Program-made: the position numbers and the translations under genes | Shown: positions 655 to 50,222 of the stretch, piece by piece | Position numbering within the stretch: the first letter of the stretch is position 1 | How the letters are laid out: the number at the start of each line of letters is the position of its first letter | Assembly: GCA_021300505.1 (NCBI GenBank) | Contig: JAJTDQ010000019.1 | Coordinates: forward strand, 1 to 60,867 | Source of the DNA: Cryomorphaceae bacterium | Lineage (GTDB): Bacteria; Bacteroidota; Bacteroidia; Flavobacteriales_D; Crocinitomicaceae | Length of the DNA stretch: 60,867 nt | Reading direction: 5' to 3' | Notes under the pieces: generated by a model | Told to the model about the DNA's origin: nothing | The model's input: only the letters and a program-made list of their open reading frames with translations | The model's database searches: none

Positions 655-1842
655 ATGGAAGCGCAGCACGACATCCTAAAAAAATCCTTCAAGCCATGGA
701 AAATTTGGGTTGCGGTTGGACTAGGGTTGTTGATTGCGGGAGTCATGCTGTTTTCAGGTGTTCGACAAGTGCAATTTATGAAGGTTGCCGAGGGAAAGGG
801 TAATTACATTTGGAAGGATGCCAATAAAAACGGTAAAGTCGATATCCACAACAGTCACGAGTTCATTTCCGTGCCTAAAGGCAACTACATCAAGCAACGC
901 GCCTCTGATGCCTTAAAGCTGTTGGAATGGTCAAGCTCATCCATTCTTTGGATCTTCATTGCCTTACTTTTTATGATTGGTCGTGACCTTTTCTACATGA
1001 TTCGAATTCGCGTCTTGACGCACAAAAAACTCGGGTGGAAATCCTCATTCCATGTGATTATGTTGTGGGAGTTTGCCTCAGCACTTTCACCGGGTGTTGT
1101 TGGTGGAGCCGCTGTTGCCATGTTCATTTTACATCGGGAGAAAATACCACTTGGAAGGTCTACAGCCATTGTTTTCATCACCACCATGATGGACAATCTG
1201 TTTTATGTCCTGATGATTCCGCTTGTCTTTCTATTTATCGATAGCTCCACCCTTTTTCCTGAAAACACCACTTACAGCATGGGTGTTCAATTGGTGTTTT
1301 GGATTGGGTTTACCATCATTTTAATTGCTTGTCTTTTCTTGTTTCTTGCAGTGTTTATTTTGCCTTCTTGGGCTGCGTGGTTCTTAAATACACTCTTCAA
1401 ACTTCCTTTCTTAAAACGATGGAAAGAAGGAGCGTCACGAACAGCCGATGACTTAATGGTTTCCTCTAAAGAGTTGCGCAAAGAGCCGATTTATTTTTGG
1501 GTGGGTGCATTTGCTTCCACCTGTGGCAGTTGGATTTGTCGCTACTTAGTTATCAATGTCTTGCTACAAGCCTTTTTGCATTTAGGAATCATGGACCATA
1601 TTCTCATCCTTGGAAAACAATTGGTGCTATGGATCTTTATGTTGATTAGTCCAACACCTGGAGGAAGTGGTGTTGCAGAATATGCCTTTGGAGAATTGCT
1701 GATGCCTTTTGGAATGTCGGCAGCGATGCTTGCAGGAATTGCGGTATTGTGGCGGTTGATTTCTTATTTCCCTTACCTCTTCATCGGAGCTCTTCTATTG
1801 CCGCGCTGGGTAAAACAAACAGGTCAGTCGGGCTTGAAATAA
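655..1842 (+). CDS. flippase-like / lysylphosphatidylglycerol-synthase transmembrane-region family membrane protein
   Basis: Multi-pass hydrophobic protein with a C-terminal 'SPTPGGSGVAEYAFGELL' motif typical of the LPG_synthase_TM (UPF0104) family. Confidence 0.65.
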   Translation: MEAQHDILKKSFKPWKIWVAVGLGLLIAGVMLFSGVRQVQFMKVAEGKGNYIWKDANKNGKVDIHNSHEFISVPKGNYIKQRASDALKLLEWSSSSILWIFIALLFMIGRDLFYMIRIRVLTHKKLGWKSSFHVIMLWEFASALSPGVVGGAAVAMFILHREKIPLGRSTAIVFITTMMDNLFYVLMIPLVFLFIDSSTLFPENTTYSMGVQLVFWIGFTIILIACLFLFLAVFILPSWAAWFLNTLFKLPFLKRWKEGASRTADDLMVSSKELRKEPIYFWVGAFASTCGSWICRYLVINVLLQAFLHLGIMDHILILGKQLVLWIFMLISPTPGGSGVAEYAFGELLMPFGMSAAMLAGIAVLWRLISYFPYLFIGALLLPRWVKQTGQSGLK

Positions 1843-2411
1843 AGCGTATATGCGGTTGTAGAAACAACTGCCGCCAAGACATAAGCTAGTTCGGGAACAA
1901 GCACGAAATGTGCGATTCCAAGCGCAAGTCCTACACCTCCAATCAACATAAAATACATCTTGAAATGCTGCTGCCAAAAAATGGAACTTTGTACTGTTCT
2001 GAATTTTCCCCGCATTAAAAATTCCATGCGGTAGCGCTGAATGGCCACAAATAAAACCAAAGGAATCAATACATAACCCTGCGCTATTCCCATGTCTTCA
2101 TACGACCAAAACGCAAGCGCTTCTTTTTTAAAATCAATTCCAGGAACAGCGACAGCAACGAAGACATGTACCACGAACAATGTTACCACAAACAACATCA
2201 TTGATATCATCGCTTGTTTCAATTCACGTTTTTTCTGACCGTTGTATTCATGAATTTTTCTAGCAGATAAATGCGCTATAATCTCTGAAGCCAGTAAATC
2301 CAGCAGATAAAATAAAAGGATAAAATAGAGGCTCCATTCCCATAGAAAAAAGCCCATGAGCGGAATTGCCGCATCAGCTGCCACTTGAATAATCTTCGGA
2401 TTCAATTTCAT
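1824..2411 (-). CDS. multi-pass membrane protein of unknown function
   Basis: 195 aa ORF with about 6 hydrophobic helices. Its end overlaps the preceding convergent gene by 19 nt. Confidence 0.55.
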   Translation of the reverse strand: MKLNPKIIQVAADAAIPLMGFFLWEWSLYFILLFYLLDLLASEIIAHLSARKIHEYNGQKKRELKQAMISMMLFVVTLFVVHVFVAVAVPGIDFKKEALAFWSYEDMGIAQGYVLIPLVLFVAIQRYRMEFLMRGKFRTVQSSIFWQQHFKMYFMLIGGVGLALGIAHFVLVPELAYVLAAVVSTTAYTLYFKPD

Positions 2412-2414
2412 CGC

Positions 2415-3464
2415 TTAAAGTAGCGCCTCAATACGGTCCTTTGAGATCTGCATGTTTGGATCGTATTTGATCGCCCAGCGGTATGCTGTAATTGCCTTGA
2501 TACGCTCCCCTTTTTGTTCATAGCATACACCTAGGTTGTGCCATGCGTTGGCAAGGGTTGGATTACTTAGGGTAGCTGAATTATAATAGTAGATGGCACT
2601 ATCTATTTCTTTATAATCATATTGTTTGATGACGCCGATTTGATTCAGCGCTTGTGCCTGATAAAAGGCGGTATCCAATAGAACCATTTTGCGATAGAGG
2701 CGCAATGCTTCCCTTGGTTCATTAAACATTTGTTTCGCGTAAGCGAGCGAGAAAATGACTTCAGGATTCTTTGGCTGAAGCTTCACTGCTGTGGTGTAAT
2801 ACTCCATGCAGATGGGATTTCCTTCGGCCTCATAAAGCATTCCCAACATCAAATCTGCCTCATAAAATTTTGGGTCTTCCTGTACTGCCCGTTCATAGGC
2901 TTCTTTCGCTTTATCGAGGTATCTTGGGTCTTCCTCCATTTGCGCCAATAAACGATAAATGGATCCCTCCAAGGTATAGGAGTCTCTATTTCTAGGATCA
3001 ATTTTTTGTGCTTTACGGATGTACTTGAAGGCACTTTCGAAATCCATAAGCTGAGCATACGACGACGCCAATCCAACTAAAACTGTCGCATTTTTTGGTT
3101 GTTGTTTCAACAAAACCTTGTAGTGTCTTTTCGCTATTGCTTTGTCATCTTCAGATCGTTCTGGACTATTGTTCAACACATTGGCATACAAGAGCCGCGC
3201 GTCAAACACGGTGCTATCCTTACCAAATGCCGTAGCGGCATCCTTTAAGGCGCCTTTAAAATCCTGTGTTTTCATGCGATGATTTCCACGCTTTACTAAA
3301 GCTTCGACCAACAGTTTTCGTGCTTCCTCATTTTTTGGGTCAGCATCGAATTCCTTTTGACGATAAACCACCAAGCTATCTAAATCTTTAGGAACTTTCG
3401 CTGTTTGCTCATTTCCTTTACAGGAAGCAAAAAGAAGGACTGTAATCAATATTAGCTGTTTCAT
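2415..3464 (-). CDS. TPR-repeat lipoprotein
   Basis: Signal peptide plus lipobox ('LLFASC'), followed by repeated 34-aa TPR-like A/Y/L patterns throughout. Confidence 0.75.
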   Translation of the reverse strand: MKQLILITVLLFASCKGNEQTAKVPKDLDSLVVYRQKEFDADPKNEEARKLLVEALVKRGNHRMKTQDFKGALKDAATAFGKDSTVFDARLLYANVLNNSPERSEDDKAIAKRHYKVLLKQQPKNATVLVGLASSYAQLMDFESAFKYIRKAQKIDPRNRDSYTLEGSIYRLLAQMEEDPRYLDKAKEAYERAVQEDPKFYEADLMLGMLYEAEGNPICMEYYTTAVKLQPKNPEVIFSLAYAKQMFNEPREALRLYRKMVLLDTAFYQAQALNQIGVIKQYDYKEIDSAIYYYNSATLSNPTLANAWHNLGVCYEQKGERIKAITAYRWAIKYDPNMQISKDRIEALL

Positions 3465-3595
3465 GAAGCGTGCTTGAAATCGAACGTCAAAGTTACGCTA
3501 AAATCCGTGGATTCCGATTGGCAAAATAAAGAAGAATAGCCGTGATTTATTCGAATTAAAAAAGCGTGAATAGCATTTTGTAGTACTTTTGTTTC

Positions 3596-3838
3596 ATGAA
3601 AATTCGTCAGCTCATTTTATCTTTCGCAATACTATTCGTATGCGCTGGACATTCTTTTTCACAGGGATGTTCACAATGCCGTATGATGACAGATCAAGGG
3701 TCGGGATTGGATGAAGGGTCTTTTGGAAACAACATCAACTCGGGTATCCTGTACTTGATGATTATACCCTATTTATTGATTCTATTTTTATTCCGCCACC
3801 GCATTATCTCCTTTTTTCGCGGATTGGCCAAAAAATAA
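3596..3838 (+). CDS. small membrane protein (signal peptide plus C-terminal TM helix)
   Basis: 80 aa ORF with a hydrophobic N-terminus and C-terminus. A hairpin terminator follows immediately. Confidence 0.45.
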   Translation: MKIRQLILSFAILFVCAGHSFSQGCSQCRMMTDQGSGLDEGSFGNNINSGILYLMIIPYLLILFLFRHRIISFFRGLAKK

Positions 3839-3862
3839 AAAAACCCGACGAATCGGGTTTTA
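3836..3862. terminator. bidirectional rho-independent terminator
   Basis: Stem ACCCGA/TCGGGT (3843-3848 / 3853-3858) with a CGAA loop, an A-run upstream and a T-run downstream. It sits between convergent genes. Confidence 0.6.
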
Positions 3863-3889
3863 AAACGAATATCTATATTGTCGCTTATC

Positions 3890-4850
3890 TTATCGCTTTT
3901 TGAACAAGGCGTGACTCAAGTTTGTGTAAGACAAAGAGAACTCAAGTGATCCACCTTTGTACGCACGCACCATCGACGATACTGTCGCATCGTAAGAAAT
4001 GCCGAAACGGAAACCGCGGAAGTCCACCGTAATCGATGGAATAATGGCATCATTCAAACGGTAATAGGCACCAAAGCCAAAGTACGCATCTTGACTATGG
4101 CCCGTAATTTTTGTTCCGTCTTGAAAACGGTATTTTAACATCATTCCAAGGATTGTCTCCATGTGTGGTCCTTGTATGAATTGTAACAAACTTGCTGTAC
4201 ATGCGCTCACCATCAACCGTCGCATACTTTAATACTGGCCGATTTAAGTGATACCCAGAAACACCAAACTGTAGTTTAAAGTCATTGTTTCGGGCAAAGG
4301 TTGATTTACCGCCATCATAGACATAATAAATTCCAGCAGAAGCATCGACGTAGCGAAATGATGCAGATGCGGCTTCGCCTGATGCAAGTGTTTGGTCAAA
4401 CCCTGTTCCTGCCCATTGAGACGAAAAACTCAATTTTGAATAATCGGCAGTTCTATTTCCAAATCCACCCTGAACACCGGCTGATAAAATATGTCCTGTT
4501 CTACCCATTGGCAAGATTCCACTCAAGGTGACAGCCCCCGTCTGATTTCCAAAACGTGAATCACCGCCAATATCGTTATAAAACAACAAGCCTAAACCCA
4601 TATGGGCTTTCGAATTGTCACGGCTCTTTCCAAAGTTGGCATCAGCAGCAATAGCGCTTGTCATGAACTGTGTTCCTGCTCCGAGCCATTGATTGCGGTG
4701 ATTGACAACCACACGTTCCCATCCGTCGTACACACCCGCACAGGCTGGGTTTATCAACAAAGGTGTTTGTGCGGTTTGAGAGAAATGTATGTCCTGAGCT
4801 GCGCTTAAAAGTGGAAGCGCAAAGGCAAATGCGATTAATCCTCTTTTCAT
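3890..4850 (-). pseudogene. PorP/SprF-family T9SS membrane protein, reading frame broken
   Basis: The N-terminal ORF (4850->4095) has a signal peptide plus 'QDIHFSQ...PLLINPACAG'. The C-terminal ORF (4225->3890), in another frame, ends 'GISYDATVSSM...GGSLEFSLSY'. The 961 nt span is not a multiple of 3. Confidence 0.8.
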
Positions 4851-4852
4851 AC

Positions 4853-7800
4853 TTATCGGATTAATGTGATATTACCTGAACGTGTTTCTTCAATGCCTGT
4901 GACAAACTTCACATCAAGGATGTATGCATAAACTCCAGCGTTGCATGGTTTGCCGTCATAGCTTCCATCCCAAGTGAAGTTTTTGTCGCTCGTTTGAATC
5001 ATCTTGTTCCCCCAACGATCGTAGATGTACAATGTAAAGCTGGCCACATCTTGTCCGACAAGAATTTCCAACGTTTCGTTCATGTCCGGTCCATTTCCAT
5101 TTGGCGAGAATCCTGTTGGAAGATAGATGCCATTGATACAATCGATACCCGCATTGTTTGGATCACATGGATCAAATGGATTGCTTCCATTTGCGATTTC
5201 ATCAATATCCAATAAGCCATCGCTGTCGCAATCTATACCTGAAGTGATCGGCAGCGTAATCGAAGCAATCACATAAGAACATGGGTCTGTTGAAACCGTT
5301 CCGTCAATCAATTCTTGCGCATCTGTGACACCATCTGTGTCAGTATCTAACTGGCAATCAGGAGATGAATCATCTGGATCACATGGATTCAATGGATTTG
5401 AACCATTTGTTACCTCAGTCCCATCATTTATTCCATCACCATCTGTATCTGGGTTAGTAGGATTTGTACCTTCTGTTCCCTCTTGAGCATTTGTTAAACC
5501 GTCATTGTCTTGGTCACAAGGACCTGCGTTTATGTTTGGAACACAAGGGTCTGTATTTGCTGGGTCTGCCTCATCAAACACACCATCGCCATCCGTATCC
5601 ACAATGGAAGATTCTAGCGCATCGATGATTCCATCGCCGTCTGTATCAAGCGGAGTTAAAATATTTGCACCTACTTCTAAGCTGTCGTTTTCTCCATCAG
5701 CATCCGTATCAGGATTGTTTGGGTCGGTTCCGATGACACCTTCATCCACATTCAACAAACCATCATCGTCTAAATCTGGATTATCCACGATGAATACCGC
5801 AATGATATTTTCAACTCCATTGATGTTGATACTGTTGGTGTCTTCTGTTACAACCGCACCAAGTGGTCCCGTTGTATATTCCCAATGGTCGAAAAGAAAT
5901 CCTGGGTTGGCCTTCGCAATTAAGTTAGTGTTTATTCCACCAAAGTAACTTGTTGACCAAGGGTAGGTTGGCGCCCAAATTGAGTTCACTTTGATCTCGC
6001 CGGAAAGCGGTGGCGAAACATTGAATGTCACAGCATAAGGTCCTGAAAGTTGGTAGCAATCGATCAGACCTTGCGCTAATGCAGCACAACGTGTGTTCAT
6101 GAACGTTTGCAATTGTGCCACTCGCGACTGCCAACCTGTAAATGTTCCTCCCCACTTGGTGACTTGTCCTTGCATTTCAGGCGAAATCTCATTCACCATA
6201 CTGTCCAACAATTGGTTCATGTAGTCACACGAAAAGTAGGTATTCACCAAGTCTATGTAGCGCGTAACATAATACTGCTCAACAGCTGGGTTTTCATTGA
6301 TTAACTTTTCCAGAATGTCTGTATGACCTTGTCCTCCTGGGTTTGGAAGGTTTTCAGCGTTGCATGGATCAGCATTTGCTGATGCATCAGGAATTCCTGT
6401 ATAATTGATATAGTGTCCAAAAGTAGCGTCCATATCCCACAAAGCATAGCGCCATTTTTTCTTATCTCCTAGTGGGTCCATTCCTCTCCACCATGCTGTA
6501 TTCCAATTCAACCAGTCTTGATTTACCACGTAAGAATTGAAAACGAAATAATCACACAACGACTGCCAGTTCAACAAACTATCTACATAATTAAAGTTGG
6601 TTGCGTTGGCCATGTTATTCGTAAGAATATAGTTACGCAATGCATTCCAATCAGGCTGTGCGTTTGGCGCACCATAATCTTGCCATGTTCCTCCCCAAGT
6701 TTTTAAATATTGTAAGTTGTATTTGTTTTGATCGTAGTAATAATTTGTGTAATCATGGTCATCCGCTTTTTCGCGAATTTCATATACCCCCCAATATTGA
6801 CCATTGAGATAAACGATACATGGTCGCCAAGTTCTTTCGTCCAACTTCATGTCTGCGCGAATAGAAAGTGTATGAATAAAGGCATCGCGAATGTGTGCAC
6901 CATTTTCAAACGAATAACTATCACTTGCCGCTGGTTTAAGCATGACCCTTTGGAAATTTTCACGGGTTTTTTCTGGGAAGATTTTATGCTCAATGTCCGC
7001 AGCATACCCATATTGGTCGCGAGTGATGTAATCAAATCCACGCTGATCATAGGCCCAAGAGTCGTTTCCGTGCTTATTAAAATCACCTTGACCTTCGTCT
7101 TTAAAGGTTCCGTCTTCTTCAAACAATTCAAAGGAACCCACCTTGATTCCCCCTCCTTGCTGGCCATTGGCGACCAAATTAAATACATCCTGACTGCATA
7201 CAGATACAACAGGAATTGTGTGTGTAACGTTGATAAAATACGTGTTCGTTTCCGTGAAAGATGCCTGGTTTGTGCTGAATGCAACTGCACGCAAAACTGT
7301 TGTTGCAGAAATAGTTATTGGACCCGAATACAGTGTTGACGTTGCTGTTGGGTTTGATCCATTGGTTGTATATCGAATGGTAGCTGTTGGATCAGGGCAT
7401 GTGATTGTTACTGTTTGAGATCCAGTGTAAAACCCTGGCGCAAGACTTAGTACAGGTGTTGGGGTGTAGAAATTAATAGCACCCGTATTGTTAGCATTCG
7501 GTGTAGGTGTAGTAAACAATTTCCAATCAGGAGCAGCGTTTGTTGAACGTCCCACTGAGTGATTCGCTTTTGTCATGTGAATCAACTTGATGGAATCCAC
7601 TACACTTCCTGCTGGATTCGACAAGATAATCCAGTCTCCCTCAGTTTGCTTAAGGTTAAAGTTCGGATGGTATTCATTCGCGATGACTGTTCCTCGGCTT
7701 GAGCAAAACACCATTTTAAAACCATTGGCGTTGATATTACCGCTTGGGATTTGCCACTTCAATAGGTTATTTGAATTGTCAGAAAGATAGTATCCTGTCA

Positions 7801-25524: not shown

Positions 25525-26280
25525 TTAAACCAATTGAATACGACTACTTAAATCATCACGGTATGACCCACCGATAGGAATGATTTTCTTGTCGTTTTCT
25601 AGAGAGAGATTTGGGAATTCTATGGATGCAATTTTATCCATTCGTACAATAAATGATCGGTGGACACGAACGAAATCAATATTCCCTAATTTTATTTCAA
25701 TATCTTTCATGGTGGAGTGGATGGTGTAACGTGCATCAGCTGTGTGGATTACAACATAATCTTTCAATGCTTCCACATAAAAAACATCTTGAGTGCGCAG
25801 CTTTATCAACTTGCTATTCGATTTAACAAAGAAAAAGTCCGAAAATACTTCCTTCTGCTCAACCACAGAATATAAAAAATTACGCTCTCTAATGATCTCC
25901 TGTTCTTTTTGGTGCTTATACACCGCCAATTCCACATTGGTGTGCAATTCCATATCCTTGAATGGCTTGATGATGTATCCGAAAGGCTCTGCAATCATTG
26001 CTTTCGTCAAGGTTAAATCATCGGAATATGCCGTAAGAAAAACCACAGGAACGTCAAATTCTTTTTTGATGATTTCAGCAGTTTCAATTCCAGTTAGATT
26101 ACCCTTCAGATTGATATCCATCAAAACAACATCTGGCTGCAATTCCTGCACGAGCTCAATAGCTTTTTCACCGTTTGAACAAGCTCCTGAAATGCCATAT
26201 CCAAATCGCTGTAGCGAATGCTGAATATCCTTCGATACGATCGATTCGTCTTCAACTACAAGGATATTAATTTTTGTCAT
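25525..26280 (-). CDS. LytR/AlgR-family response regulator (REC + LytTR DNA-binding domain)
   Basis: REC motifs 'ILVVEDE' and 'DVVLMDINL', plus a C-terminal LytTR pattern 'FVRVHRSFIV'. There is no adjacent histidine kinase. Confidence 0.8.
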   Translation of the reverse strand: MTKINILVVEDESIVSKDIQHSLQRFGYGISGACSNGEKAIELVQELQPDVVLMDINLKGNLTGIETAEIIKKEFDVPVVFLTAYSDDLTLTKAMIAEPFGYIIKPFKDMELHTNVELAVYKHQKEQEIIRERNFLYSVVEQKEVFSDFFFVKSNSKLIKLRTQDVFYVEALKDYVVIHTADARYTIHSTMKDIEIKLGNIDFVRVHRSFIVRMDKIASIEFPNLSLENDKKIIPIGGSYRDDLSSRIQLV

Positions 26281-26852
26281 CTCAAAAAGCTTGAACTCAA
26301 AGGTATTTAAATTTTTGTGACAACTCGGGTCATTTTTCCAACTTCACTTACCAAACTGAATATATAATAGTATAAAGAAGATTTATTTTTAAAAAGGAGA
26401 TTTATTATTCTTTATTAAGGCTGTTGAAATGTGTGAAAAAACAAAACGAATTGCTTTGAAAATTGAGGATTAACAAAATGTTTAGACTTATAAACAGGTT
26501 ATTATAAAGTTAAAATACATGATTATGAGTTTATTACATGTTAATCAACAATCTTAGATTTTTTCTTGTTGTGAATATTTAATTTCTTTTTTACCCTATA
26601 TTTTTGTGTTTAACGGTGATGATAAATACACCATAAATCACCAAAACTTTCCTTGCACATGTCATTTGCATTTTGCTTTCTGAATTCTGATGAGAAAAAC
26701 AAGTGAATTCTATGAATACTTGTTAACCGTAATTCACAATTTGCGCAAGATTTATGTGTGAAACACCACTACATAAATCGAGTGTTTTCAAGGTTTTTTA
26801 AATTTTAAAAATCCTTCAATGTTTAAAAGTTGGCAACAATGTGCATAAGCTG

Positions 26853-26860
26853 TACCTTTG
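26853..26860 (+). promoter_or_regulatory. candidate -7 box (TAnnTTTG) for rpiB
   Basis: TACCTTTG lies 22 nt upstream of ATG 26883. Confidence 0.4.
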
Positions 26861-26882
26861 AAAAACCAAAATACAACGATTT

Positions 26883-27314
26883 ATGAAAATTATTCCAATC
26901 GGTGCTGATCATGCAGGATTTCAACTCAAAGAACGTATTCAGCAATATTTAACTGACTTAGGTTACGAAGTTAAAGATTTCGGCTGTTTTTCAGAAGAAA
27001 GCATCGATTATCCAGATTACGCACATCCTGTTTCAGAGATGGTTCAAGCGAATCCTGGAATGATAGGAATATTGATTTGTGGCTCTGGAAATGGCATAAA
27101 CATGACAGCAAATAAACACGCAGGAATTCGTAGTGCTTTATGTTGGAAAAAGGAAATCGCTGAATTGGCGCGTTTACATAACAATGCAAACATAATAGCT
27201 TTACCCGCGCGTTTCATTTCTTATGAAGAAGCAAAAGAAATGGTTGAAGTCTTTTTAACTACGGAATTTGAAGGTGGAAGGCATCAAAAACGCGTAGAGA
27301 AAATAGCGCTTTAA
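26883..27314 (+). CDS. rpiB: ribose-5-phosphate isomerase B
   Basis: 'IGADHAGF', 'ILICGSGNGI' and 'RLHNNANIIALPARF' match RpiB/LacAB. Confidence 0.9.
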   Translation: MKIIPIGADHAGFQLKERIQQYLTDLGYEVKDFGCFSEESIDYPDYAHPVSEMVQANPGMIGILICGSGNGINMTANKHAGIRSALCWKKEIAELARLHNNANIIALPARFISYEEAKEMVEVFLTTEFEGGRHQKRVEKIAL

Positions 27315-33297: not shown

Positions 33298-33314
33298 ACA
33301 GTGGTTATTTCGTG

Positions 33315-33322
33315 CAAAGGTA
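33315..33322 (-). promoter_or_regulatory. candidate -7 box (TAnnTTTG on minus strand)
   Basis: The reverse complement reads TACCTTTG, 17 nt upstream of the ATG at 33297. Confidence 0.35.
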
Positions 33323-33403
33323 GCCCCTTATTTTGGAATAGTACCGCGTTGACACTTAAGAAAGGTTAAATAGGAATAAATGAAACCGCAGTAGTACTAA
33401 ACA

Positions 33404-33631
33404 TTAATTGCAATGCCAAAGAACGCGGTATGTGCGTGAATTTGAATATTCGATGAGTCCGTTCTTTTGGCAAGCATCTGGGGAAGGTATGCTGCTGTTT
33501 GTTGTTGAGAAAGATCCATCCGCGTTTTGTTGTTGAGTTTCCTTGTAGCAATTACACATACCATTGGTTGTTGTTGAGTTTTCTATGCTGCACGCAGCGA
33601 GCAATGGAAGTATAAATAAGAGTTTTTTCAT
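33404..33631 (-). CDS. small Cys-containing lipoprotein
   Basis: 75 aa with lipobox 'LLAACS' and further Cys residues. Confidence 0.5.
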   Translation of the reverse strand: MKKLLFILPLLAACSIENSTTTNGMCNCYKETQQQNADGSFSTTNSSIPSPDACQKNGLIEYSNSRTYRVLWHCN

Positions 33632-33947
33632 GAAACTGTAAAAATCTAAATGCTTGAATATGAGTGCAAAAGTAATTATAGATTTTTAATTGGTTACAAA
33701 TTTTCTTTAATAACTATCTGTTTATTATGTGTTTACTATATTTCTCGGGTTATCTGGGACTATAGTTTTAGGATGTGAATGAATTTTATTTTTAAATGAT
33801 GTGTGTTAATGAATAGCATAGTTAGGTTCTGAATAATTGTAAATAGATTCCTTAGAGCACTTTTAAGTTTACCTGTTGCTTTGTAGAAATTATCTAGCAG
33901 ATGTATCCCCATCGGGGTCGAACAAATAATCGAATGGGTTTATTTAA

Positions 33948-34100
33948 GGTTTCGAGTGGATTACTTTGTGATCCTGTGTATTGGTTACATATCAACCCAA
34001 AAGCCTCGCCTTTCTACGAAAGTCTAATGGGCTTTGTTGATTTTCCCTGCCATTCAACACGGTTTTGCAGACCGTTGCCTAGCCGCTCGGCCACGAAACC
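33948..34100 (-). ncRNA. tRNA-Cys(GCA)-like RNA with a ~100 nt insert replacing the variable loop and T arm (aberrant tRNA, tRNA-like ncRNA or pseudogene)
   Basis: Minus strand reads GGTTTCG-TG-GCCGAGCGGCTAGGC-A-ACGGT-CTGCAAA-ACCGT, then ~100 nt, then CGAAACC. It has a 7-bp acceptor, a canonical D arm (U8, A14, GG), a 5-bp anticodon stem, U33 and a GCA anticodon. No TTCGA T-loop is present. Confidence 0.55.
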
Positions 34101-34128
34101 ACTAGGAGTGCAAATATACCAAAAAAAA

Positions 34129-34482
34129 TTATTCTTCAATGATGATTGCGACATTGTCCACATCTCCATTTATTGGAGGAGTAATTTTAGTCACCTTCAC
34201 ACGTAAAAAATCAATGCCCTTCGCTTCGTGTTTTATGCGATCAACAATTCGTTGACCTACCTGCTCGATCAATTTTGAACGAATGGCCATTTCCTCTTTT
34301 ACGATGTGATTGATCAACACATAATCAACTGTCTTGGAAAGCTCGTCGGTATGCGCTGCTTCGCTAAAATCTGTATTTAACATAACATCAACCACGTAAT
34401 GACCTCCAATTTTTTCTTCTTCAGGCAAGCAACCGTGAAAAGCATAAATTTTTATTCCATTGACTTCGATTGTGTGTTTCAT
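34129..34482 (-). CDS. folB: dihydroneopterin aldolase
   Basis: 117 aa with 'IYAFHGCLPEEEKIGGHYVVDV' and 'DYVLI', typical of FolB. Confidence 0.85.
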   Translation of the reverse strand: MKHTIEVNGIKIYAFHGCLPEEEKIGGHYVVDVMLNTDFSEAAHTDELSKTVDYVLINHIVKEEMAIRSKLIEQVGQRIVDRIKHEAKGIDFLRVKVTKITPPINGDVDNVAIIIEE

Positions 34483-47170: not shown

Positions 47171-47219
47171 TTGAGAGTTCTTTTATATAAGTCTGACGAC
47201 AATTTCGTTTACAAGAAAA

Positions 47220-47243
47220 CCTGAGTCATAGCTCAGGTTTTTT
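47220..47243 (+). terminator. rho-independent terminator
   Basis: Stem CCTGAG/CTCAGG followed by T6. Confidence 0.7.
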
Positions 47244-47270
47244 GACATTATAATCTAAAACAAAAACTTA

Positions 47271-48077
47271 CTAGTTTACACTCTCGGCTAGGCTTTCAAT
47301 AAATAATTTTGAAATGTCATTTGCTAGAATCTGACTTTCTTTAGTATCCAAATTAAAATCATCCTCAATGGTTTTAATTAACTCGATTTCTTCACCATTC
47401 CATTGAAATAAATATTTAATCGTAGAAAAATAATAAGGGTTTCCACATTGCTCAATTAAAATGAAATTATCCTTATCAATGGATTTTATCAAATTACCAC
47501 CGTACAGATTGTCGTCATCCAATTCGTTAAAAACCTTATTGTAGATTAAATTACTTATGCATTTGCCGTTGATATCATAAATCTCTGAGTCTTCTTCATT
47601 TCCAGGCTTCTTTAATAGAATTAATTGATTCGAAGCTTGGGCTATTTCATGAAAATAATCATTTAAAAAATCTTTATCTTTCGCTATGGGATGAGAACTA
47701 ATTTCATCGAAATCAAACACTTCGTAATCTTCGTCGCAATCCTCGTCTTTATCCATATAAAACAAGTGTTTAATTTTAAATGGGAATTCTGAAAACAACG
47801 AACTTAATTGATCTTCATTCGCTTCTGTAATCACCCAATGATAAAAAGATTCATAACTCAAGTCATTTCCTAACAATGACTTGTAATCTTCCTTATAATG
47901 ACCTTCTATGTATGAATACTCTATTCTATTGGCAAAATTATCATCACCCCTTTTATCACCATTAGGAAATCCAAATCCACGAAAACACGATTTTAGGCTG
48001 ATAGAATCTGGAGACTTTATCTGTAGGAATTGTTTTAAACAATTGTAAATGTCAAGTGTTTCTCTTTGATTATTCAT
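47271..48077 (-). CDS. highly acidic 268 aa protein of unknown family, translationally coupled to the PrimPol gene
   Basis: ATGA start/stop overlap with the upstream gene. D/E-rich throughout ('DKDEDCDEDYEVFDFDE'), with no signal peptide or TM helix. Very AT-rich codons. Confidence 0.6.
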   Translation of the reverse strand: MNNQRETLDIYNCLKQFLQIKSPDSISLKSCFRGFGFPNGDKRGDDNFANRIEYSYIEGHYKEDYKSLLGNDLSYESFYHWVITEANEDQLSSLFSEFPFKIKHLFYMDKDEDCDEDYEVFDFDEISSHPIAKDKDFLNDYFHEIAQASNQLILLKKPGNEEDSEIYDINGKCISNLIYNKVFNELDDDNLYGGNLIKSIDKDNFILIEQCGNPYYFSTIKYLFQWNGEEIELIKTIEDDFNLDTKESQILANDISKLFIESLAESVN

Positions 48078-48757
48078 GTTTTATAGTTTAATCTAAAAAT
48101 ATTATTTTTCCTCCATTCCGTAGTATTCTTGAACAGTAAAAAGAGCCATTCAGGCAAATGATTAATTTGTTCTTTTATATTGACGCCGGATGAATAATTT
48201 TTAATGGAATACACGTTCCCATTCAGATGAACGGTAAAGGGAATCATTACATAGCCATTTTCAGCAATTAAGTCAATTCCCGCCTTACCGTATGTTTGAA
48301 AAGAAGGTCGGTAAATGCTTTCAAATGGATAAAATTGCTCGCGTTGAAAATGAAAATAATAATGTAAACCTCCACCAGCTGTTTCAATTTTGAGCGTTTC
48401 AATATCTTTTCCACCATTGTACCGCAAAAGCCAATCTTTCCAAACGGATGTACCTCGAAATTCTTTATCCACATCTACGACTACCAATTCATTTCTAACA
48501 CCGCACAACAATGCTAAATTCTGGGAATAATTAAACGTACCATGGTGAATCTTTAATTTCATTTCCTCATTAAATCGGAATAATTCAACCCTAAAGTTTG
48601 AAACATTCAGTAAAGGTTTATGATACTCATCACAAGGAAAAAGTAAAAATCCTTCCTCACAAAGTTGCTGTATAAATAGGCATTTTTCCATGTACAAGTG
48701 TCCCAACGAAAATATAAAAAAATATAGGGGAAACTGTGTTAAACTATTAAATTCCAA
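48074..48757 (-). CDS. stand-alone bifunctional primase-polymerase (AEP / Prim-Pol domain) protein
   Basis: 'LVVVDVDKE' (DxD), 'ETAGGGLHYYFHF' (sGGxHxyF) and 'GIDLIAENGYVMIPFTVHLNGNVYS' match the Prim-Pol N-terminal domain. No helicase or C-terminal domain. The start may be the internal ATG at 48691. Confidence 0.65.
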   Translation of the reverse strand: MEFNSLTQFPLYFFIFSLGHLYMEKCLFIQQLCEEGFLLFPCDEYHKPLLNVSNFRVELFRFNEEMKLKIHHGTFNYSQNLALLCGVRNELVVVDVDKEFRGTSVWKDWLLRYNGGKDIETLKIETAGGGLHYYFHFQREQFYPFESIYRPSFQTYGKAGIDLIAENGYVMIPFTVHLNGNVYSIKNYSSGVNIKEQINHLPEWLFLLFKNTTEWRKNNIFRLNYKT

Positions 48758-48837
48758 TAGGGTGTTTACATAAATGCGAGTTTCAGATTCAAATCTTTTA
48801 CCCCTGACTAATAATTATTTATTAAGATTAAAACTTG

Positions 48838-48845
48838 TACATTTG
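48838..48845 (+). promoter_or_regulatory. candidate -7 box (TAnnTTTG)
   Basis: TACATTTG lies 15 nt upstream of ATG 48861. Confidence 0.3.
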
Positions 48846-48860
48846 AATAAATGTAGAGAA

Positions 48861-49574
48861 ATGTTAAAGTATTTAGTTATTTCATTATTGTTTTGTTCTT
48901 TATTCAGCTGTAATAATGGGAGTTTGATTTCTTTGAAACCTAATTCAAATTATTATCTCGCCAGAGCGAATCTATTTAGAAAATACTATAAAAATAGTAG
49001 ACAGGTATTAAAGAATTTAAAATTCGCTCTTTCTTCGGAAAATGCAGAAGAATTCAGAATACTTGAATACAGAGCAGAGTATTATTTTAAAGAATTGAAG
49101 GACTCGTCGAATGCATTCAAGGATTGCAAAGTATTGATCGAAAAGTATGGTGATAGTGCTGTCACCCCATATGCGATTTATGCTGAGTATTTATCCGATT
49201 GCAGGAGATTTAATGAAGCTGAAGAATACTATTTAAAAGCAATTCGATCGTTCGAAGGAAATGTCAATTGGAATTGGTATGATTATTATTGTGATTTGGG
49301 GTACTGCAGAATTGAACTGCAAGACTATTATGGTGCCTTGTATTGCTTCGAAAGAGCAGGAGAATCTCGATTTAGTAGGCTTGGAAATCATGAACTAATT
49401 GGTAAAGGATACTGTTTATATAAATTAGGCCAAAAAGAGTTAGGGAGAAATATGATGAACATATTTAGACGAGATTGGGAATATGATGCCTACGGGGCAC
49501 CTGAAATATACTTTGAAATATTTCCTGAAAAAGAACCTAGGCGTGTTAAGTACAAGTACGACTGGCCCAATTAA
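48861..49574 (+). CDS. TPR-like lipoprotein (island gene)
   Basis: The internal ATG gives the lipoprotein signal 'LLFCSLFSC'. Repeated Y/A/L helical-hairpin pattern. The 48774 start is probably spurious. Confidence 0.55.
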   Translation: MLKYLVISLLFCSLFSCNNGSLISLKPNSNYYLARANLFRKYYKNSRQVLKNLKFALSSENAEEFRILEYRAEYYFKELKDSSNAFKDCKVLIEKYGDSAVTPYAIYAEYLSDCRRFNEAEEYYLKAIRSFEGNVNWNWYDYYCDLGYCRIELQDYYGALYCFERAGESRFSRLGNHELIGKGYCLYKLGQKELGRNMMNIFRRDWEYDAYGAPEIYFEIFPEKEPRRVKYKYDWPN

Positions 49575-49613
49575 TCAACCTTTAGGCCTGTTAACTAAGG
49601 TAAGCAGATTGCT

Positions 49614-50141
49614 CTAAAGCTCAAAGATATCCTCTTTTGAATCCGTAAATAAGCCATTGAAATCTCGGGTATCCACTGCGTACGCCCCTTTTAGTCCTCC
49701 GGGCTCTTTCCATAAAATCTGTAGTTTGGGATAATTCGGGTTGTTTTTTAGGTTTAGAATAAAATATTTTTCTTTCAAGGTGTTGTAATACATGGATTTA
49801 TCTTCAAAAATGAAAATGGCAAAGTTCTCGTTAACAGATATCGGTTTGATGATGAGATTTACCGTTGTGTCTACAATAGAATCTCCATAGTATTTCCAAA
49901 AATTATGCTCGACCGTGTTTTTGTCAAAGTCAAATGTGAATAGTTGAAAGCCCTCAGTTAGTTCATCACTTTCCTTGTTCAAGAATATACCAGGGAAAAG
50001 TACGGTATCCTCGAGCGAAAAATCTTTGGTTGAATTCACAAATATTTGTTTGGTTCCAGTCAATAAGTGAGTTGATTTGTTACGCATGCCTAGCGAGGAA
50101 CATAAAACAAAACAAAGCATGGAAAAAAGCAATTTTGTCAT
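49614..50141 (-). CDS. secreted hypothetical protein (island gene)
   Basis: Signal peptide 'LLFSMLCFVLCSSLG'. 175 aa with no recognisable family. Confidence 0.5.
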   Translation of the reverse strand: MTKLLFSMLCFVLCSSLGMRNKSTHLLTGTKQIFVNSTKDFSLEDTVLFPGIFLNKESDELTEGFQLFTFDFDKNTVEHNFWKYYGDSIVDTTVNLIIKPISVNENFAIFIFEDKSMYYNTLKEKYFILNLKNNPNYPKLQILWKEPGGLKGAYAVDTRDFNGLFTDSKEDIFEL

Positions 50142-50222
50142 CGTATTTAATTATAGGTGGTACAAGCGCATAACCCAAATAGAAAACAATTATAACATTA
50201 GACTTTGGGCTTTTAGCGCAAC

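Follow-up and report, generated by a model that had tools for sequence, protein, structure and literature searches.

Archaeo-eukaryotic primase (AEP)-type Prim-Pols that are proficient as primases have, in all cases studied so far, ancillary domains or subunits (PMC10345425). In the Thermus enzyme TthPrimPol a core (residues 4-208) is joined to a PriCT-1 domain (PMC5141293), and deletion of the Thermus Ppol had no effect on replication of its element and raised transformation 100- to 1000-fold (PMC7693054). AgaPP, a stand-alone protein, binds the protein encoded by the gene downstream of it (PMC11724360). Here we describe a pair of genes on the minus strand of contig JAJTDQ010000019.1 from a Cryomorphaceae bacterium (GCA_021300505.1), whose whole stretch of 60,867 nucleotides is referred to below as the window. 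The upstream gene (48074-48757) encodes a Prim-Pol, called PrimPol below, and the downstream gene (47271-48077) encodes a strongly acidic partner of 268 aa. The pair is not a chance association; it is a conserved, co-diverging cassette. We tentatively favor the reading that it specifies a primase-polymerase of two subunits, encoded on exchangeable accessory DNA, with the partner taking the place of the ancillary module that the core lacks. What appears to be new is a split PrimPol with a new protein family as its second subunit or regulator.

The window PrimPol shares features with several described systems and differs from each of them. TthPrimPol/Ppol, from ICETh2, is like it a bacterial pRN1-type Prim-Pol without a zinc finger on accessory DNA (PMC5141293, PMC7693054). 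TthPrimPol, however, has 291 aa, a C-terminal PriCT-1 domain and a helicase neighbor within an integrative and conjugative element (ICE); whereas in the window there is a 205-aa core with an unrelated acidic partner and no helicase or ICE context. The resemblance to AgaPP, found with prokaryotic Argonaute (pAgo) in Seonamhaeicola (Flavobacteriaceae), lies in the arrangement of a stand-alone AEP and a next gene, whose product supplies the ancillary functions of AgaPP (PMC11724360). AgaPP differs in being BT4734-like, with Lys in motif II and an extra N-terminal domain, in having a Walker-type PriCT-DUF3987 helicase as its partner, and in the presence of integrase, tRNA and pAgo at its locus. 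The window protein has His in motif II (GGGLHYYF), its partner bears neither an NTPase nor a PriCT signature, and integrase, tRNA and pAgo are all absent. The D5/P4-type primase-helicases of phages, satellites and plasmids have the same Pfam domain, and with them the slot after the PrimPol gene, often overlapping it, is occupied by the helicase; in the window the slot is taken by an acidic protein that is no NTPase and belongs to a new family, and no phage or plasmid genes are nearby. CAPP is CRISPR-Cas-associated, whereas the window cassette is without Cas neighbors. Closest to the logic that we propose are the archaeal and eukaryotic PriS-PriL(-PriX) enzymes, in which a catalytic AEP core is combined with a separately encoded non-catalytic subunit (PMC10345425). 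In contrast to PriL and PriX, the window partner has no Fe-S cysteines and is acidic, its C-terminal half is beta-rich, and it resembles them in neither sequence nor fold. Another kind of likeness is offered by ArdA-type DNA mimics and the acidic tails of SSB and gp2.5, which resemble the partner in their strong negative charge and in having an acidic/aromatic disordered segment beside a nucleic-acid enzyme. The partner, however, matched neither ArdA nor any other family, is larger and has two folded domains, and mimicry by it would be hypothetical. The window PrimPol lacks the defining features of the TthPrimPol-like, primase-helicase, BT4734/AgaPP, CAPP, integrative-element and PADLOC-system groups, and in the literature we found neither this partner nor DUF4116 described as paired with a PrimPol.

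Counted from a TTG at 48757, the PrimPol open reading frame (ORF) could encode 227 aa. All 11 homologues that were aligned with PrimPol begin at window M23, and therefore the product is probably a protein of 205 aa starting at the ATG at 48691. It matched the Pfam Prim-Pol profile PF09250 with 45.3 bits (E 1.6e-11; cut-off 22.8 bits) and also three PHROG DNA primase/polymerase families (E 1e-5 to 4e-3). The motifs read in the sequence are VVVDVD, GGGLHYYF and GIDLIAENGYVMIPFTVH. Across the alignment D95 and D97 of motif I (VVVDVD) and H132 of motif II (GGGLHYYF) are invariant, and D162 of motif III (GIDLI) is present in 10 of the 11. By its profile score and all three motifs the protein is a member of the AEP Prim-Pol family, and as read from its sequence it is the AEP catalytic core and nothing more. 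There was no Pfam match to PriCT, and in the alignment the protein stops right after the core; it contains no zinc finger, helix-bundle domain or helicase. The close relatives form 11 clusters, every one a stand-alone protein of 189-212 aa, and these PrimPols have isoelectric points (pI) of 6.8-9.5. Comparison with the four closest relatives gave ratios of nonsynonymous to synonymous substitution rates (dN/dS) of 0.21-0.39, indicating purifying selection. When the PrimPol profile was run on GTDB species representatives and IMG/VR, nothing closer than PrimPol domains of 23-36% identity was found. Most of these remote viral domains (IMG/VR) are the N-terminal parts of primase-helicase fusions of 600-1,100 aa. 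A few small remote PrimPols of phages and other mobile genetic elements (MGEs), 250-290 aa in length, bear a PriCT-1-like G-x-R-N tail, and one small PrimPol, at L019 (L numbers designate the other loci and contigs compared), is overlapped by a downstream gene of 481 aa that appears, from a reading of its translation and with no family search made, to encode a D5/P4-type helicase.

The partner has a pI of 4.34 and a net charge of -29, and its whole family is acidic (pI 4.25-4.85). It gave no match to Pfam or NCBIfam at E<0.1, none to PHROGs or PADLOC up to E=1, and none to PDB sequence profiles; on these searches it belongs to no described family. The family has very few members: 4 clusters came from a word-indexed search of 5.8 billion proteins, 9 relatives from an exhaustive phmmer search of 1.84 billion representative proteins, and 14 from a profile search. 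The profile detected no relative among the 2.9 million viral contigs of IMG/VR (GTDB was not searched with it), and tblastn found none in the 72,556 plasmids of PLSDB or the 50,697 phage records of INPHARED. The AlphaFold2 (AF2) model of the partner had a predicted local distance difference test score (pLDDT) of 77 and a predicted template modeling score (pTM) of 0.77. In this model an N-terminal helical domain (residues ~1-95) is followed by a low-confidence acidic/aromatic loop (residues 112-123, inside DKDEDCDEDYEVFDFDE), a beta-rich C-terminal domain made of two four-stranded units (residues ~140-237), and a long terminal helix (residues 246-266). Residues 179-238 weakly matched the FG-GAP_2 repeats of a 1,198-aa protein, P0023 (phmmer, E 7.9e-5), a faint link which fits the modeled beta units being propeller-blade-like. 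The FG-GAP Pfam domain itself was absent from all 15 members of the partner family, and propeller-blade-like Foldseek matches occurred only at E >= 0.15. Foldseek matches to Ctf4 and to the sialidase propeller were insignificant and were not used. The invariant and near-invariant residues of the partner (I145, Q147, G171, W81, Y215 and others) are mostly hydrophobic or structural. Since no catalytic motif could be recognized among the conserved polar residues K21, N47, Q147 and Y215, the partner is probably not an enzyme. Its dN/dS values relative to the four closest relatives were 0.13-0.24, again indicating purifying selection. A first-pass annotation made from the letters of the window had described these two ORFs on the minus strand, their ATGA junction and the PrimPol motifs, and had taken the first protein for an AEP composed of little else and the second for an orphan. 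Its coordinates and motifs were found in the sequence as described, the profile score and motif conservation bear out the AEP assignment, and neither profile nor Foldseek searches connected the partner with a known family.

The two genes overlap by 4 nucleotides (48074-48077, minus strand; TCAT on the plus strand is ATGA in the coding strand), so that the TGA of PrimPol overlaps the ATG of the partner, an arrangement by which the two are translationally coupled. The same overlap recurs in L005-8, L012, L078, L077 and L095; L080 has a longer overlap, of 26 nt, and in L001, L009 and L010 the genes are 11-15 nt apart. When homologue contigs were scanned in six frames with hidden Markov models (HMMs) of both families, PrimPol was found directly upstream of a partner-domain gene at every locus with readable upstream DNA. 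These loci represent eight lineages: the window type, L005-8, L077, L012/L078/L079, L080, L001-4, L009 and L010/11. The sole exception is L081, where an IS30-like transposase (1291-3044) lies in the position expected for PrimPol. Identity across the lineages drops to 42% for PrimPol and to ~20% for the partner, which diverges about twice as fast, and the pairwise identity matrices of the two proteins are correlated with r = 0.93. We conclude from the purifying selection on both genes and from their correlated divergence that both are functional and evolve together. Recombination within the cassette is seen between L077 and L078, in which the PrimPols are 80% identical and the adjacent partners 94% identical; this comparison shows, at the sequence level, a mosaic history. 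Relative to the window, the dS of the partner (~1.6) is far above that of PrimPol (0.35-0.58).

The partner family consists of two old paralogue types, A and B, and the window carries the minimal form, with type A only after PrimPol. A second, anciently diverged partner paralogue lies downstream in the four lineages closest to the window; in L005-8, L012/78/79 and L077, A is followed by B in tandem, with B frameshifted in L005. In L001-4 the gene after PrimPol encodes B fused to ~21 DUF4116 repeats in a protein of 951-1,020 aa, and in L009 there is B and then a 1,466-aa protein (1480-5880) with type A at residues ~6-260, type B at ~496-744 and 20 DUF4116 repeats thereafter. DUF4116 is a predicted alpha-solenoid without known function (PMC8078820). 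L001 and L009 share a downstream gene of the major facilitator superfamily (MFS), and therefore the array of partner genes was remodeled in place. PADLOC gave no match for the partner paralogues or the fusion protein. A further protein, of 194-206 aa with two N-terminal transmembrane (TM) helices, is encoded next to the cassette at six loci of distinct sequence, of which five have PrimPol and the sixth is the IS30-disrupted L081; its genes include L095:9368-9952, L005:6498-7082, L078:3117-3701, L080:2422-3018 and L081:4339-4959. The window allele does not carry this gene. One of four homologues of the two-TM protein that were tested (that of L081) gave a weak match to PADLOC PycTM (E 6.7e-5), which spans the TM helices and thus may reflect composition only. 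The proposal of a two-gene module therefore holds for the minimal form in the window; elsewhere the module often has more than two genes, by way of paralogue B, the DUF4116 fusions and the two-TM neighbor.

The cassette lies, with two cargo genes, in a low-GC, strain-variable islet of 3,045 nt (47171-50215) which was delimited by comparison with L094. The G+C content (GC) is 0.26-0.38 across ~47.1-50.4 kb and 0.40-0.47 in the flanks. L094 is an empty-site allele: its identity to the window is 96.8% as far as 47170 and 97.8% from 50216 onward, and 271 unrelated, hairpin-rich nucleotides (L094:8628-8898) stand in place of the islet. By looking up identical flanking proteins in other assemblies we found four alleles at this one chromosomal site. 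At least three long contigs carry the window-type allele, among them one from the NCBI metagenome-assembled genome GCA_046304595.1. The L095 allele is 97.3% identical through PrimPol, after which a gene for a 194-aa two-TM protein replaces the window's gene for a tetratricopeptide repeat (TPR)-like protein, and it rejoins the window at a gene for a 175-aa protein. In the L084/L092 allele PrimPol is separated from the TPR-like gene by an IS3-family element with HTH_Tnp_1 and rve ORFs (L084:8403-9532, equal to L092:10205-11334, in an 80-kb ENA contig), inserted seven codons upstream of the ATG of PrimPol at a place corresponding to window ~48700-48773; the window allele is without it. Outside this site, the cassette of L005-8 is 91% identical in nucleotide sequence and lies in another chromosomal context, with SprB/PorP, a helix-turn-helix (HTH)-Fic pair and GNAT. 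No direct or att-like repeats flank the islet or the L094 replacement, ARAGORN found no tRNA, and there is no helicase or integrase among the islet genes and annotated neighbors. We conclude that the islet is accessory DNA with an insertion/deletion polymorphism and without a recombinase of its own. Thus the low GC and the empty site in a 97%-identical strain bore out the suggestion of foreign composition in the first-pass annotation, and its remark that helicase and integrase are lacking nearby agrees with the ordinary chromosomal neighbors that we found; the check for co-occurrence which it had recommended showed the pair in eight diverged lineages, not embedded in prophages or ICEs.

In the two-subunit primase-polymerase that we propose, the 205-aa core would be the catalytic subunit, with an intact metal- and nucleotide-binding triad, and the partner would be the non-catalytic subunit. 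The helical N-terminal domain and the two propeller-blade-like beta units of the partner may dock onto the core and substitute for the ancillary module, and its acidic/aromatic disordered loop could fill the DNA-binding groove and gate activity. In relatives, the extra paralogues and the partner-DUF4116 alpha-solenoid fusions might tether the enzyme to other factors. Because the islet that bears the operon comes, goes and recombines among strains and brings no recombinase with it, the operon would serve the cell in some accessory DNA transaction (synthesis for tolerance or repair, or an interference with incoming DNA like that reported for Thermus Ppol) and not in replication of the chromosome or of an element. 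It is in this sense that we infer a physical complex, gating by the acidic loop and the cellular role. Several results weigh against this proposal. The catalytic core of CAPP primes efficiently without its C-terminal domain (CTD) (PMC10345425), and thus a bare core may need no partner. The AF2 monomer model of PrimPol was poor (pLDDT 44). For the model of the partner, the best Foldseek match in the PDB had an E of 0.15, with TM scores no higher than 0.26, and the best viral match (BFVD) an E of 0.07, none of them significant. No similarity of the partner to PriL or PriX was detected, and a Pri2/PriX-like role for it would be pure conjecture. That the partner might be a detached PriCT-1 domain was rejected at the sequence level, since hhalign gave a probability of 0.15% against an alignment of 28 PriCT-1 sequences taken from the PrimPols of phages and MGEs. 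Finally, the partner varies in copy number, has ancient paralogues and repeat fusions and diverges fast, a pattern more like that of sensor or immunity modules in conflict systems than that of a fixed subunit of a polymerase.

The last of these points leads to the possibility, to which we assign a rather low probability, that the cassette is a conflict module serving anti-phage or anti-plasmid defense, abortive infection or a toxin-antitoxin (TA)-like addiction. PrimPol would then be the effector or a signal-making enzyme, and the acidic partner an inhibitor or sensor, a nucleic-acid mimic released or titrated on invasion, with the two-TM protein as membrane effector in the fuller versions. 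Residence in a low-GC islet with presence/absence polymorphism is consistent with such a role, as are the finding of a 91%-identical cassette in a different chromosomal context, the neighbors at sister loci (HTH-Fic pair, GNAT, split Kinase-PolyVal, IS3 and IS30) and the way in which the partner has diversified, by paralogues in tandem and by fusion to repeats. TA-like features are the 4-nt overlap and the pairing of an acidic with a basic protein, and Thermus Ppol reduces the uptake of environmental DNA (PMC7693054). However, neither the window genes nor the paralogues matched PADLOC, no TA family in Pfam or PADLOC matched either gene, and the window islet is not flanked by known defense genes. 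The adjacency of the two-TM protein in six loci, with its one weak PycTM match, would favor a membrane effector, but that match was obtained for one of four homologues over TM segments, where composition may account for it, and the window allele lacks the gene. A more specific version, which we consider unlikely, is that the mini-AEP, the partner domain or domains and, in the fuller versions, the two-TM protein constitute a previously unrecognized conflict system. In such a system the primase would be held inactive by a nucleic-acid-mimicking partner and released on invasion; its product, either aberrant DNA or RNA or a short oligonucleotide acting as a signal, would then stop the invader or the cell, and the paralogues and DUF4116 fusions would be diversifying sensors.

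Descent from the replication genes of a mobile element seems to us improbable. According to this explanation a plasmid, satellite or integrative element left its replication module stranded in the chromosome, where the cassette is its relic or a cryptic form of it; PrimPol would once have served as replicase, and the partner as an element-specific protein for initiation or origin binding. MGEs are the typical carriers of bacterial AEPs (PMC5862659), the domain relatives in IMG/VR are mostly phage or MGE primase-helicase fusions, and the foreign composition and the insertion sequences in sister alleles would fit such an origin. Yet there is no integrase, helicase, tRNA, att-like repeat, iteron or tandem repeat at the islet, the partner is absent from the viral contigs, plasmids and phage records searched, and every contig read looks chromosomal. 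In addition, eight lineages, all without other element genes, have kept both genes intact and under purifying selection; because of this selection a remnant replicon is the least consistent of the functions that the first-pass annotation had suggested. It is very improbable that the two genes are functionally unrelated and linked only through joint transfer. L005-8, L012 and L077-L080 do share most of the islet, and some of the linkage therefore comes from common descent; but gene order and tight spacing are kept down to the lowest identities of both proteins, while all other neighbors change. Of these explanations the two-subunit primase-polymerase is the one that we retain as a working proposal.

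PrimPols are in use as biotechnology enzymes (TruePrime) and serve as models for the de novo start of primers. A natural 205-aa core that is always accompanied by an unrelated partner offers a minimal system for what an ancillary subunit must supply, and the partner itself is a new protein family without a detectable structural relative. With its empty and filled alleles and the swapping of cassettes at one site, the locus lends itself to study as an example of flexible islets that have no recombinase in uncultured Flavobacteriia. The PrimPol domain has so far been found in phage defense only within PrimPol-reverse-transcriptase fusions (PMC12439943); if the conflict explanation were true, bacterial immune modules would gain one whose stand-alone enzymatic core is an AEP-type polymerase. 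As an object the cassette is real and rare, has clean limits and is open to experiment, and any function given to it here is a proposal.

The remaining genes of the islet are cargo of two kinds. Divergent from the cassette on the plus strand is the gene for the TPR-like protein (48774-49574), which has a lipoprotein-type N-terminus and gave weak TPR matches, all below cut-off; it is variable cargo and no conserved part of the cassette. The 175-aa protein (49614-50141, minus strand) has a hydrophobic, Cys-containing N-terminus, MTKLLFSMLCFVLCSS, which we read as lipoprotein-like, and matched no family. It is 82% identical to its L005-8 counterpart in the same relative position (84% for the gene), is common only to the window and L005-8 loci, and thereby travels with the cassette in two chromosomal contexts. 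PADLOC gave no match for the four islet proteins. Between the partner gene and the convergent gene for an outer-membrane protein (OMP) lies a hairpin, CCTGAG-N6-CTCAGG with an A run and a T run at its sides (47216-47243), which from its sequence is likely to be a bidirectional terminator. A simple terminator scan did not call it, and the counts of promoters and terminators in such scans did not exceed those of shuffled sequence and were uninformative. Neither iterons nor tandem repeats were found, and no Rfam family reached the gathering score. The genes flanking the islet on one side encode YbeY, MnmG, IspG, a fatty-acid desaturase, YjbR, Hsp15 and the OMP beta-barrel, and those on the other side a PA/Por_Secre_tail protein and an iron-sulfur (Fe-S) protein. 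Among the annotated neighbors of the window-type and related loci there were no Cas domains.

The other cassette loci have neighbors of their own. In L005-L008 (3922-4973) the HTH and Fic/Doc genes overlap, with Fic split in L005 and L006, and in L078 (2327-2980) a Kinase-PolyVal gene (PF18762) is present as two ORFs; both the HTH-Fic pair and the split Kinase-PolyVal are content typical of a variable island. An ORF6N protein was also found at other cassette loci. In L081, beside the IS30-like transposase, there is a 260-aa ORF with an N-terminal motif that looks partner-like and that was detected neither by the partner HMM nor by BLAST.

Two further regions of the window lie away from the islet. 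At 33300-34130 there is ~0.8 kb without an ORF of at least 120 aa, with a GC of 0.36, no Rfam family at the gathering score and no ARAGORN tRNA; within it, 34029-34100 on the minus strand gave a tRNA-like match below threshold (23.1 against a 29-bit cut-off). The second is a 600-nt intergenic region (26280-26883) between the genes for a LytTR response regulator and RpiB, and it falls in the kilobase with the lowest GC outside the islet (0.31).

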